Below, piece after piece: positions 11,501-42,946 of a stretch of 42,946 nucleotides of DNA. This DNA comes from Polyangiales bacterium (lineage in GTDB: Bacteria; Myxococcota_A; Polyangia; Polyangiales; Ga0077539), in assembly GCA_044229975.1 (NCBI GenBank), contig JBGARZ010000031.1, positions 1 to 42,946 on the forward strand, written 5' to 3'. The first letter of the stretch is position 1. Every line of letters begins with the position of its first letter. The notes below the pieces were generated by a model that saw only the letters and a list, made by a program, of their open reading frames with translations, was not told the DNA's origin and made no database searches. Made by a program: the position numbers and the translations under genes.

Positions 11501-13391
11501 GCACGGCGAACAGCTCACCGGGCTCGACCGGCTTGGGCACGTGGCTGTTGAAGCCGGCTTGCAGCGCGCGGGTGCGATCCTCCGAGCGGGCGTAGGCGGT
11601 GAGCGCCACGGCCGGGACATCCGACGCAGGGCCCACCGACGCGCGGATGCGGCGCGCGAGCTCGTAGCCGCTCTCGGCGGGCATCCCGACGTCCGACAGG
11701 ACCAGCTCGGGCGGCGCGGCGGTGAAGAGTCGCCACGCCTCCGCGACGTTGGAGGCCACACGAACCTCCGCTCCCGCGCTCTCCAGCAGCGTGCGGATCA
11801 GCTCGCGCGTGTCGTCGTCATCGTCGACCGCGAGCACGCGAACGCCACGGAGCCCGTCCGGGTCTACCGTCAGTGGTGCTTCGGGCGCGACCTCGCGGAT
11901 GGGCGTCCCGTGGGCCGGGCTGCGACGACGCGTGGCCGCGATCGGGAGCCGCACCGTGAAGGTCGCGCCCTTCCCCTCGCCCTCGCTGAAAGCCTCCGCC
12001 GTGCCGCCGTGCATCTCCACGATCTGGCGCACGATCGAGAGCCCCAGCCCGAGGCCACCCTGCGCGCGCGTCGCCCCGCCGTCCGCCTGGCGGAAGCGCT
12101 CGAACACATGCGGAACGAAGGCCGACTCGATGCCCCGCCCCTGGTCGATGACGCTGAGCTCCACCGACGAGTCATGGCGCTCGATCACGACCCGCACCCT
12201 CGCCCCCTTGGGGCTGAACTTCACGGCGTTGGAGAGGAGGTTCCAGGCGACCTGCTGGAGGCGCTCGGGGTCGCCCATCACGAGGCAGTCCGTGGCGAGC
12301 GTCGCGAGGAGCTGCGTCTCCCGCGCCTCGGCCGCCGGTCGCACGGTCTCCAACGCGGCCTCGACCACCGACCGGAGATCGACGGCCTGAACGTCCAGGC
12401 GGAGCTTGCCCGCGAGGATGCGGCTCACGTCGAGCAGGTCTTCGATGAGCTGCGACTGGGCCCGCGCGTTGCGCTCGATGGTCGCGAGCGCGCGCTCCTG
12501 ACGGTCGGGAGGAAGCGTGCCCGATCGCAGGATCTGCACCCACCCGAGCATCGCCGTGAGCGGCGTACGCAGCTCGTGGCTCACCGTCGCGAGAAACTCG
12601 TCGCGCAGCCGACCCGCGTCCTCCGCCTCGCGGCGCGCGGCGCCTTCGGTGACGAGCAGGCGCTCGCGCTCGGCCTCGGCCGCCTTCTGGCGCGTGACGT
12701 CCTTGAAGACCAGCGCCACCTGCCGCAGCTCGGGCGGCCCGACGCGACTTGCATACACGTCGAACCAACGGCCGCCCATGGCGGGCGCGTGATTCTCGAA
12801 GCGGGTGGTCTCGCCGGTGAGCGCGACGCGCCCGTAGAGCTCGAACCACGACGCGTCGAGGTCGGGAACGAGCTCCCGCGCCGTGCGGCCGAGGGCGTTC
12901 TTGAGGCCGGTGTGAACCTCGAAGGCCGCGTTGGTCTCCAGGAAGCGGTAGTCGATGGGACGGTCGTCCGCGTCGAAGAGGAGCTGCATGAGACAGAAGC
13001 CGTCGTCGATGGACTCGAAGAGCGTTCGGTAGCGCTCCTCGCCGCGGCGCAGCGCCTCGGCGTGCGCGCGCCCAGCGTCGGCGACGGCGGCCATCACGAA
13101 CGCGACGAAGCGCCGGAGTTCGGACGACGGGACCTGCACCTTCTCGCGATCGATGGTCTCGAGCACGTCGTCGAGGAGCGCGCCGTACTCCGAGTCCACA
13201 TGCATCGGAGCACCCACGTCGGATGCCGGGGCGCGGAGGGCGAGCGCGGCAGCCTGGACGAAGCCGCTCATGTGCGCGATGAGCTCGGGGGCGACGTCGG
13301 TTCCGGGCGCGAGGCGCGAGGCCACCGAGGCCCGCCAGCGATCGACGAGGCCGGAGAGGTTGGATTCGAGGAGGCCCGCGAGCACGCTCAC
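11460..13391 (-). CDS. Hybrid PAS sensor histidine kinase / response regulator
   Basis: PAS (YRFLETNAAFE), H-box SHELRTPL, N-box NLLSNAVKF, G-boxes DQGRG/GLGLGL, C-terminal receiver (VDDD, SDVGMP, KP); start approximate. Confidence 0.92.
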   Translation of the reverse strand: MSVLAGLLESNLSGLVDRWRASVASRLAPGTDVAPELIAHMSGFVQAAALALRAPASDVGAPMHVDSEYGALLDDVLETIDREKVQVPSSELRRFVAFVMAAVADAGRAHAEALRRGEERYRTLFESIDDGFCLMQLLFDADDRPIDYRFLETNAAFEVHTGLKNALGRTARELVPDLDASWFELYGRVALTGETTRFENHAPAMGGRWFDVYASRVGPPELRQVALVFKDVTRQKAAEAERERLLVTEGAARREAEDAGRLRDEFLATVSHELRTPLTAMLGWVQILRSGTLPPDRQERALATIERNARAQSQLIEDLLDVSRILAGKLRLDVQAVDLRSVVEAALETVRPAAEARETQLLATLATDCLVMGDPERLQQVAWNLLSNAVKFSPKGARVRVVIERHDSSVELSVIDQGRGIESAFVPHVFERFRQADGGATRAQGGLGLGLSIVRQIVEMHGGTAEAFSEGEGKGATFTVRLPIAATRRRSPAHGTPIREVAPEAPLTVDPDGLRGVRVLAVDDDDDTRELIRTLLESAGAEVRVASNVAEAWRLFTAAPPELVLSDVGMPAESGYELARRIRASVGPASDVPAVALTAYARSEDRTRALQAGFNSHVPKPVEPGELFAVLTSVLRRSRRGPS

Positions 13392-40683: not shown

Positions 40684-41898
40684 ATGAAGCGACGCTCTCG
40701 TTGGATCGCGCTCGGTTTCCTGCTTCAGGCCCACGCCGCGTGGTCGCAGCAGACGGGCGGTCGCTTCGGTGGCTCCAACTGGGGCGCCCCGCCGCCCAGC
40801 GCCCCGCCACCGTCGGCCCCCTCGCTCGCGCCGATGCCACCGCCGATGCCACCGCCGATGCCACCGTCGCCGTCGATGCCCTCGATGCCCTCGATGCCGC
40901 CGTCACCGGCCCCGACCGTCGCTGCGCCGTCGATGCCCGCGCCGCCGCCACCGCCAGAGGCGCCGCCCATGCACGCGACCAGCTACCGACGCCCCGCGCC
41001 CGTCGACCTCGCGCCGACCGAGCGCCCGGGCACCCACCCCGTCGACGACGCCGAGTTCCGCATCGCCCACCCGTCGAGGGATTACAACCAGCGGTATGGC
41101 CCGACGCGCACGCTCGCGGGCCTCGCCACGGGCGGTGTCGTCTTCGGCCTCGGCGCCGCGCTCACCCTCTGGCTCACCCGCTCCGGGGGAGCCTCGCGCC
41201 CGACGCACCGCGCCCCCGCGGCCTACCGCGCGCCCGTCGCCGCCGGCCATCCGGGCGTCGAGGTGCGCCGCATCTCCGTCGCCTTCGACTGGAGCGTCCG
41301 CGGGTACATCCAGCAGACCCTCGACGGCGTGGCGGGCTCCGTCGACATGAGCTCCCCGCAGGGCCTCCACGCCGCTGCCAGGGCCGCGTGCGACGCCATG
41401 GCCGGCGCCCACAAGGGGGCGCGCTACGCCTCATTTCAGGGCTGGTCACTCGACCCGGCGCGGGGGCAGCAGGTGTTCGGTCAGCTCGCCGACGCGCTGC
41501 GCGGTCGGTACACGGCGGAGTCCGTCGACAACGCCCGGCGGGTGGCGGCGCCGAAGCTGACCGCACGCGTCGAGGAGGGCGCCGGGCTCGTGGTGGTGAC
41601 GCTGCTGGTGGCGGTGAAGGGCCCGCTGCCGCCACTGCCCCAGGTGCTCAACCTCCCGTCGCTGCTGTCCGCGCTCGACGGGCTCGTCCCGCTGCGCGCC
41701 GACCTGCTGGCGGCGCTGGAGGTGGTGTGGTCGCCGGCCGCCTCCGACGACCGCATGTCCTCGGCCGAGCTCGAAGTGCTCTACCCCGAGCTGCTTCGCC
41801 TGGACGACTCCGCCGCGCTGGGCCGTCGGGTCTGCGGCTCGTGCCACGCGGTGTACGCCGGTGAGCTCGGCCGCTGCCCCGCCTGCGGCGCGGTGTAG
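40684..41898 (+). CDS. DUF1517-family protein with Pro-rich linker and C-terminal zinc ribbon
   Basis: GGRFGGS, VVVTLLVA, ALEVVWSP...DRMS..EL...YPEL; CGSC..CPAC. Confidence 0.78.
   Translation: MKRRSRWIALGFLLQAHAAWSQQTGGRFGGSNWGAPPPSAPPPSAPSLAPMPPPMPPPMPPSPSMPSMPSMPPSPAPTVAAPSMPAPPPPPEAPPMHATSYRRPAPVDLAPTERPGTHPVDDAEFRIAHPSRDYNQRYGPTRTLAGLATGGVVFGLGAALTLWLTRSGGASRPTHRAPAAYRAPVAAGHPGVEVRRISVAFDWSVRGYIQQTLDGVAGSVDMSSPQGLHAAARAACDAMAGAHKGARYASFQGWSLDPARGQQVFGQLADALRGRYTAESVDNARRVAAPKLTARVEEGAGLVVVTLLVAVKGPLPPLPQVLNLPSLLSALDGLVPLRADLLAALEVVWSPAASDDRMSSAELEVLYPELLRLDDSAALGRRVCGSCHAVYAGELGRCPACGAV
40831..40899 (+). repeat. Short in-frame tandem repeats (CCGATGCCACCG x3; TCGATGCCS x3)
   Basis: Directly visible; encode PMPP and SMP. 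Confidence 0.85.
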
Positions 41899-41975
41899 CA
41901 AAGCCTCCATCGACCTTTTCATTGAGGACAACGACCGCCGTCACCCGACGGCGACCTTTCCTCATGCGATTTTTC

Positions 41976-42010
41976 TTGCCACATCTTCTTCAGGGTGTAT
42001 AAAGGGCGCG
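41976..42010 (+). promoter_or_regulatory. Sigma70-type promoter for the tRNA cluster
   Basis: TTGCCA (41976-41981), 16 nt, TATAAA (41998-42003), then GC-rich discriminator GGGCGCG, in an AT-rich patch. Confidence 0.6.
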
Positions 42011-42171
42011 AATCGAGTCCTCACCATGCACCCCGTCCACACCACCCATGACGTCACCGACACCCGGGCAAGCGGCCCGGTGGTTGTGCGTTCGTGCGCA
42101 GTGGCGACGGCGGCGCACATCGGCCATCGGCGCTGGCGAAGCACCGACGCCTCCAAGAATGTCTCCCGTGA

Positions 42172-42243
42172 AGGGGGAGTCCTGGTGGACGGTGCGGTCT
42201 CCAAAACCGCGCGGCTCGATGGGTTCGATCCCCACGCTCCCTG
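42172..42243 (+). tRNA. Atypical tRNA-Trp(CCA)-like gene or pseudo-tRNA
   Basis: GCGGT-CTCCAAA-ACCGC anticodon arm, TTCGATC T-loop, A1-U72/G73; truncated D region; no encoded CCA. Confidence 0.65.
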
Positions 42244-42355
42244 CTCGTCCGCGAGCGCTCACCGTCGACAGCAACGCGATCGACAGCAGCGGCTGCAACG
42301 CCAACGTGGCGCCGTCACTGCTCGATTTACCGCGTCCGCGTAGTCAGTCTGACGC

Positions 42356-42429
42356 GCGGGGGTAGCTCAGTCGGTAGAGCGCCGGATTGAAAATCCGGAG
42401 GTCAGGGGTTCAAGTCCCCTTCGCCCGCA
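42356..42429 (+). tRNA. tRNA-Phe(GAA), one extra base on the 3' side of the acceptor stem
   Basis: TAGCTCAGTCGGTAGAGC D-arm, CCGGA-TTGAAAA-TCCGG, AGGGG-TTCAAGT-CCCCT. Confidence 0.9.
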
Positions 42430-42484
42430 CTCGCGACCTGACGGCGGACATCGATCACAGTGGCGGCCTCGCGGGGAAGTCTCC

Positions 42485-42558
42485 TCCGGCGTCGTCCAAC
42501 AGGCATAGGACGCGGTTCTTTGGAAGCCGTCATCCTGGTTCGAATCCAGGCGCCGGAA
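42485..42558 (+). tRNA. tRNA-Gln(UUG)
   Basis: TCCGGCG/CGCCGGA acceptor, CGGTT-CTTTGGA-AGCCG, CCTGG-TTCGAAT-CCAGG. Confidence 0.9.
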
Positions 42559-42624
42559 CCGCCTTGTCGATTGGGGACTTATCCTCCATCGAAAGGGATC
42601 GTTGTGCCTTGTGATCGTCCGTCT

Positions 42625-42698
42625 TCGGGGTTCGTTCAATGGTAGGACGCGGGCTTCTGGCGCCCGCTATGGGGGTTCGATTCCCTCACCCCGAACCA
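42625..42698 (+). tRNA. tRNA-Gln(CUG) with encoded CCA
   Basis: TCGGGGT/ACCCCGA acceptor, CGGGC-TTCTGGC-GCCCG, GGGGG-TTCGATT-CCCTC, ACCA. Confidence 0.93.
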
Positions 42699-42769
42699 CC
42701 ACACCCATTGGTTGCACGTTGGCGGGCCTCACGCCCATCCCTCTCAAAGTCACCAAGTCCGCTTGCAGA

Positions 42770-42807
42770 CCGGGGTTGGTCGCGTCTCGCGCCTGCACCC
42801 CGGGCCA
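42770..42807 (+). ncRNA. Candidate CCA-ended mini-hairpin RNA (acceptor-stem mimic) 1
   Basis: 7-bp CCGGGGT/ACCCCGG followed by unpaired G-CCA; inner GG(T)CGCG/CGCGCC helix. Confidence 0.35.
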
Positions 42808-42818
42808 GCGATCGGCAT

Positions 42819-42857
42819 AGGGGCGGCCCCTCCGTGAGGAGGAGCCGACCCCTGCCA
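42819..42857 (+). ncRNA. Candidate CCA-ended mini-hairpin RNA (acceptor-stem mimic) 2
   Basis: AGGGG/CCCCT + CGGC/GCCG + CCTCC-GTGA-GGAGG, followed by G-CCA. Confidence 0.35.
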
Positions 42858-42946
42858 CACCACCGGACAAGCGGGTCCGCATCCGGCGGTTCGGACGGTT
42901 GAGGTCACCTCCGTAGCCTCCACAACCCGAGGCTGTCGAACCAACT

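Follow-up and report, generated by a model that had tools for sequence, protein, structure and literature searches.

The described systems closest to the locus studied here are leader-peptide attenuators and cryptic tRNA arrays, the latter of which are widespread. In trpL, hisL and the multivalent ilv and thr leaders, a ribosome slowed on cognate codons is the presumed signal. The E. coli pheL-pheA system is described as a leader-peptide attenuator (PMC3082878). L-arrays, including the trn operon of Anabaena PCC 7120, have redundant isodecoders, a patchy distribution and presumed induction by stress (PMC8421152, PMC10272220), and control of the Anabaena operon is attributed to TrcR, a global repressor acting on promoter repeats (PMC8421152). 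Irregular cloverleaves occur in polycistronic tRNAs and allo-tRNAs (Mukai et al., PMC5389517). The word "leader" has 0 occurrences in the main texts of PMC8421152 and PMC10272220, as do "Trp" and "leader" in the accessible text of PMC5389517. A search mainly of the open literature, at the level of titles and the beginnings of abstracts, returned no description of leader-peptide or attenuation control of tRNA genes.

The tRNA unit described here shares features with each of these systems. Like the leader-peptide attenuators, it begins with a short ORF whose codons match its products, and a slowed ribosome is the presumed signal. Unlike them, its products are tRNA genes rather than enzymes, the ORF crosses a tRNA gene, and several amino acids would be sensed serially, each ahead of the tRNA that it matches. 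A scan for intrinsic terminators gave 0 terminator-like sites in 41800-42946. The unit resembles a multivalent leader-peptide attenuator, but with no terminator found it is kept apart from the classical members. As in L-arrays and the Anabaena operon, the isodecoders are redundant, their distribution is patchy, stress induction is presumed, and HNH and RNA-repair genes adjoin related units; the difference is that the genome distributes its set over 11 small units, and the one studied here has four genes. TrcR-type direct repeats, searched with the partial published pattern and up to 2 mismatches, gave 0 matches at its promoter. The unit also has irregular cloverleaves in a polycistron, but those of Mukai et al. 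have 8/4 or 9/3 acceptor branches, as far as described in PMC5389517, whereas tRNA-Trp in this unit combines a short D arm with a long anticodon stem.

The window (the whole stretch of 42,946 nt that was analyzed) is contig C16 of a 10.0 Mb Polyangiales genome with ~71% GC. The original prediction of four plus-strand tRNA genes for Trp, Phe, Gln and Gln is borne out by ARAGORN, which calls all of them: tRNA-Trp(CCA) at 42171-42244, tRNA-Phe(GAA) at 42356-42430, tRNA-Gln(UUG) at 42485-42560 and tRNA-Gln(CUG) at 42625-42698. The last three are also found by Rfam, with scores above the cut-off (66.4, 51.0 and 56.8 bits, respectively). The Trp gene does not reach an Rfam gathering score and fits the tRNA-Sec model best (36.6 bits). 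The promoter-like element noted before is present at 41976-42003 on the same strand as a predicted sigma70-like site (TTGCCA-16 nt-TATAAA). A strict consensus scan misses it because the final T is absent, and similar sites precede the other accessory units. The gene upstream of the tRNA unit is a DUF1517 gene.

Two of the four tRNAs are irregular, as had been noted. The Trp gene, here placed at 42172-42243, has a short D arm, a 7-bp anticodon stem, A1-U72 and G73, and the Phe gene has an extra base in the acceptor arm. The CCA end is encoded in Gln(CUG) alone, also as predicted. Since only 11 of the 45 housekeeping tRNA genes in the same genome encode CCA, its absence is no mark of a mimic. 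At 87% identity to the C20 housekeeping gene for Gln(UUG), the accessory Gln(CUG) gene looks like a duplicate whose anticodon has changed.

The unit is a real, probably inducible accessory unit of four tRNA genes; it is not the start of a long array, and the idea of a mimic cluster finds no support. For every one of the four anticodons, the genome has a separate housekeeping gene elsewhere, which is the check that the original prediction had proposed; the twins of Phe, Gln(UUG) and Gln(CUG) are on C8, C20 and C24. ARAGORN calls sorted by inspection gave 28 accessory genes in 11 scattered units, of which this unit is one, together with 45 housekeeping genes and 12 false calls in coding DNA. Genome-wide, 27 of the 28 accessory tRNAs have a housekeeping twin. 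The same-genus genomes G001 and G004 have only 44 and 49 tRNA matches, small accessory units are present in G004, G005 and G010, and other genera of the family have long arrays of the same tRNA types instead of small units. Supernumerary isodecoders and patchy spread among relatives, two marks of L-arrays, are found here, but a long contiguous array is not. Trp and Gln(UUG) have anticodon loops that differ from those of their housekeeping twins. Since the loops of Phe and Gln(CUG) match their twins, evasion of nucleases through loop changes could be at most partial. Elsewhere in the genome (G000), three accessory tRNA-Leu genes at C19:132218-132612 have no long variable arm, and a conserved tRNA at C20:281741, also in G005, has a UAU anticodon and is called Ile.

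The informative feature of the locus, overlooked in the original prediction, is a 105-codon leader ORF at 42026-42343 on the plus strand. It starts at the first ATG after the promoter (42026), runs in frame through the tRNA-Trp gene and ends with TAG at 42341-42343, 12 nt before tRNA-Phe. Its sole Trp codon, W37 (TGG, 42134-42136), is located 36 nt before the Trp gene. The leader then has a Gln run at codons 82-93 (42269-42304), with six Gln in 12 codons (three CAG and three CAA), and an Ala-Arg-Phe end at 42320-42341 in which F101 is TTT at 42326. The order is thus Trp codon, Trp gene in frame, Gln run, Phe codon, and then the Phe, Gln and Gln genes. The Gln run is a strong signal (about 4e-5 region-wide). 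Trp and Phe are represented by one codon each, and over the whole ORF Trp, Phe and Gln together are only weakly enriched, at 9 of 104 codons (p 0.062). Two metatranscriptome contigs are identical to 42079-42267 and 42119-42269 at a depth of 2.6-2.7. They are only a weak hint of transcription because DNA carry-over is possible and both studies may belong to a single campaign.

A protein search returned seven homologous ORFs among 30 candidates, with 39-95% identity. This set is biased since the protein database holds only open-frame versions. In the eight-row alignment M1, R36, W37, S39, G56, F67, A99, R100 and F101 are invariant. W37 is conserved in all eight sequences and is in each the first Trp, and the Gln run is likewise found in 8 of 8. 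The aligned ORFs have 2-7 Gln in the short tail that follows the tRNA-derived part versus 0-2 ahead of that part, and the Trp-Gln-Phe order is kept in eight homologous ORFs. The part before W37 is 10 to 60 residues long. A profile run against 1.84 billion representatives matched nine, five of them already known, and added a full homolog (P0009) and a partial one with the Trp part and no Gln run (P0012); P0010 and P0011 look spurious and were dropped. The leader profile matched none of 30 other genomes of the family, and no match was found in the viral contigs, plasmids and phages searched. The leader has no match in NCBIfam, and the seven homologs have no precomputed Pfam domain, yet the ORF is called as a gene in several assemblies. 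Judging from their peptides, the leaders P0006, P0007 and P0009 seem to include another in-frame tRNA gene, of Ile(GAU)-like type, ahead of the Trp codon, and 42094-42118 of the window may be a remnant of the acceptor stem of such a gene.

Contigs from related strains were not picked for an open frame; they are single contigs with a depth of 2.7-6.8. All three have no stop in the leader frame and an unchanged W37. One has a net deletion of 18 nt in the leader, and the one contig that spans the Gln run to the stop has no change in that part. Inside the Trp gene, 6 of 7 changed codons are synonymous in the contig that spans the Gln run to the stop (X7 record 7) and 0 of 2 in another, and pairing is kept in 5 of 6 changes in the Trp gene stems. 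Selection on the leader frame is indicated by these patterns, on few sequences. A second frame in the window, starting at ATG 42048, is also open for 105 codons. It was rejected as the leader, as its ATG is lost in one related-strain contig and a stop is gained in another.

The other accessory units in the genome follow the same design. A short ORF begins ~10-35 nt after the promoter -10 box in 9 of the 11 accessory units, and a comparable short upstream ORF is seen for 5 of the 45 housekeeping tRNA genes. The leader is rich in Glu, Arg and Asp before Glu-Arg-Asp tRNAs and in His and Tyr before Tyr-His, and the Asn/Lys/Arg, Gly, Cys/Ser and Leu leaders likewise match their own tRNAs. When paralogous units are merged into seven types, the actual pairing of leaders with tRNAs ranks 1 of 5040 permutations, with or without Arg. 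The leaders were picked with the tRNAs known, but under a single rule, and the C21 and C2-Arg units were excluded from this test as their leaders are longer and further upstream. The match often extends to the codon: AGG occurs three times only before Arg(CCU), AAG three times before Lys(CUU), CTG, CTT and TTG before Leu(CAG), Leu(GAG) and Leu(CAA), and CAG and CAA in the window unit. An exception is the Arg(UCU) gene on C19, where the first leader has no AGA codon. Nine leaders from G004, G005, G010 and the metagenome locus L222 all score best against their own tRNA sets (9/9), although these are kin and not independent trials. Cognate codons in a short upstream ORF, by which attenuators are recognized, are thus present, and the signal is strong for the Gln run and across units. 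In 301 genomes, the His-Tyr leader pattern has exact matches in G000, G004 and G005 only. The candidate operator TGTCGATTG has 4 of its 23 sites in or beside tRNA units.

Taken at the level of sequence, the leader is probably a tRNA-specific gauge which is read by the ribosome and induces back-up tRNAs when the cognate codons are decoded slowly. Because cognate codons lie just ahead of the matching tRNA genes, a slowed ribosome likely induces the matching back-up tRNA. The route from the stall to tRNA output is less certain than the tRNA-specific sensing by the ribosome. With a normal tRNA supply, the ribosome would pass W37 and run through the Trp gene, preventing its folding and processing, and would then clear the leader end, which may allow pairing with the 5' half of tRNA-Phe or the end of transcription. 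Stalling at W37 would leave tRNA-Trp intact, a ribosome halted at F101 would mask the anti-Phe segment, and arrest within the Gln run would favor the downstream Gln genes. Rho-dependent termination is a possible output step. The trigger would likely be a loss of charged tRNA, for example by cleavage by toxins or anti-phage nucleases; starvation is a less favored alternative. For Trp, we infer that translation through the gene, blocking its folding, is the simpler account.

The broader reading has an even chance of being right: the genome would carry a second tRNA set in small operons, each with a ribosome test track in its own codons, and where the test track crosses a tRNA gene translation would destroy or release the tRNA. 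If true, this would be a codon-resolved feedback on tRNA supply that replaces tRNA removed by a toxin, a phage or an anti-phage nuclease. With codon-matched leaders, the cell could sense when a single tRNA species is lost and restore that one alone. What supernumerary tRNAs are for would then be directly testable by simple codon swaps. Conservation of a frame across a tRNA gene also amounts to a dual coding and structural constraint, which annotation pipelines miss, and would offer natural tRNA-specific biosensors.

Predicted folds give mixed support for the output step. Pairing is predicted between the Ala-Arg-Phe end of the leader and the tRNA-Phe 5' half, in the acceptor and D arm. The same anti-Phe register is seen in three other Phe units, although two of the four Phe units came from a pattern requiring part of that feature. 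In six units the His/Tyr codons are predicted to pair with the Tyr acceptor. When leader ends were compared with the 5' strand of their own tRNA, the Tyr units ranked 4 of 720 (1 of 24 for four distinct units) and the Phe units 4 and 2 of 24. The 28 accessory genes show no stronger upstream complementarity to the 5' half of their tRNA than the 45 housekeeping genes do (p 0.69), modeled folding is disrupted by upstream DNA in 14/45 housekeeping versus 6/28 accessory genes, and 76 of 100 shuffled upstream sequences also disrupt the fold. A genome-wide "anti-tRNA" rule is not supported by these accessory versus housekeeping controls. The anti-Phe hairpin is no more stable than its shuffles (z -0.78). 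With a ribosome at F101, Phe acceptor pairing is 0.81 if all upstream RNA is blocked and 0.07 if the RNA behind the ribosome is free, and in the blocked-upstream fold tRNA-Phe is freed at any ribosome position from R100 to the stop. A ribosome at W37 leaves a local anti-Trp hairpin uncovered. In ribosome-walk folds, 4 of 10 units switch on.

Release of tRNA-Phe over the whole stretch from R100 to the stop would also suit a general sensor of translation stress, in which any stall induces the whole unit and the cognate codons merely tune the response. The Anabaena operon is reported to respond to many ribosome-targeting drugs (PMC8421152), and the leaders of the C21 Thr and C2 Arg units are longer and less specific, with strong hairpins at their ends. 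Such a general sensor is nevertheless unlikely, since the leaders follow their own tRNA sets, often to the exact anticodon, and a generic sensor needs neither. The unit could alternatively be a decaying fragment of a horizontally acquired long array, with the frame and the Gln run as by-products of GC-rich DNA and RNA structure. The tRNA remnants in other units, the long arrays of the same tRNA types in other genera of the family, the 0 of 30 family genomes matched by the leader profile and the second open frame of 105 codons are all consistent with this. Decay does not account for frame-specific conservation, synonymous changes within the Trp gene, in-frame indels, the pairing kept in 5 of 6 Trp stem changes or the permutation rank of 1 of 5040, and is considered very unlikely.

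The irregular Trp and Phe genes raise the question of whether they are uncharged mimics or nuclease decoys released under leader control, as the original prediction proposed in part. The short-D Trp design is conserved across phyla, recurring in arrays of several, and keeps the intact anticodon arm as well as A1-U72 and G73, which we take to be identity elements of tRNA-Trp. Its pattern matches at least 75 loci in genome contigs, mostly housekeeping Trp genes or long arrays among the matches listed, and an anticodon stem of at least 7 bp is found in 7 of 16 short-D Trp genes versus 1 of 43 normal ones. A mimic would have no functional anticodon arm and lie next to Ro/TROVE; all four genes have anticodon arms, and no Y RNA family match was found in Rfam for the tRNA region of the window. 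The additional "hairpins" counted toward such a cluster are the intron and the repeat described below. In Anabaena, 23 of 26 array tRNAs are reported as aminoacylated, and the same source raises a sponge role speculatively (PMC8421152). The Trp score below the Rfam tRNA cut-off, and the report that some irregular polycistronic tRNAs are inactive in translation (PMC5389517), would fit mimics or decoys, which on balance seem a shade more improbable than decay. It is least credible that the leader encodes a small trans-acting protein. Its 105 codons and its calling as a gene in several assemblies would fit a protein, but neither an NCBIfam match nor, on the seven homologs, a precomputed Pfam domain is found, the stretch N-terminal to W37 ranges in length between 10 and 60 residues, and the tRNA gene sets the sequence of the middle part.

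The array had been predicted to run off the window with further CCA-ended hairpins and tRNA-like genes. These are actually one arm of a repeat and the end of an intron. Because both come after Gln(CUG), the unit consists of four tRNA genes and ends here. The left arm of a dispersed palindromic repeat, which is the intron target and is outside of the tRNA unit, is located at ~42722-42810. It is followed at 42811-42946, on the minus strand, by the 3' end (domains V-VI) of a multicopy group II intron, inside which the contig breaks. This segment scores 30.5 bits against Rfam RF00029, below the 40-bit cut-off, and is near-identical to seven other places in the genome, for eight copies of the intron 3' end. 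The RT of another, full copy matches TIGR04416 at 417.9 bits, above the cut-off. Domain V/VI and an RT/maturase, by which group II introns are recognized, are both found when the full copies elsewhere in the genome are counted. From its motifs and stem-loop, the intron is presumably of class IIC. In this class the 5' splice site follows a stem-loop (PMC7161350), and the arm hairpin observed here as well as the RT/maturase family match agree with it. The target differs in being a long palindromic repeat, with 7 of 8 intron 3' ends joined to the same repeat position. The repeat is ~250-300 nt long with conserved arms and a variable core, and the intron is at one position. The arm has 25 counted matches in the genome, and copies without the intron exist. 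Repeat and intron sites are seen at 42722-42946 of the window and on G000 C4, C14, C26, C32, C34 and C36. Public contigs span the Gln-repeat and repeat-intron junctions. The best-matching continuation of C16 is the start of C4, with an arm match of 113 bits versus 76 and 65 for the other two candidates. After the repeat arm, C4 encodes an ECF sigma factor and then thioredoxin, and ARAGORN finds no tRNA on it before position 11660.

The RNA-repair genes proposed as neighbors are absent from the window unit: no rtcB lies beside it, as the three rtcB copies are all on other contigs, and TROVE and HNH genes are missing. The latter part of the proposal stands for other accessory units, which do have Rsr/TROVE-like and HNH-type genes beside them. 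Accessory Arg(GCG) at G000 C2:10385 (L133) precedes an Rsr/TROVE-like gene with a match below the cut-off. Accessory Thr at G000 C21:32540 (L132) comes after a gene which we take to be of the HNH type from its motif. Both of these units have longer leaders, strong hairpins and tRNA remnants.

Several related loci have features of their own. The Tyr-His units (G000 C4:11660 and C34:314473; L193 and L203) are followed by what is presumably a release-factor-like gene, which has a CTT-TRA slippery site resembling the prfB frameshift. In Micromonospora, L066, L067, L109 and L112 are long arrays headed by Trp. The leader of each ends in two Trp codons, with a terminator-like hairpin after them. The long array L030 (G026:C469) has several tRNA genes that are split at the T arm by one repeated insert of ~60 nt.
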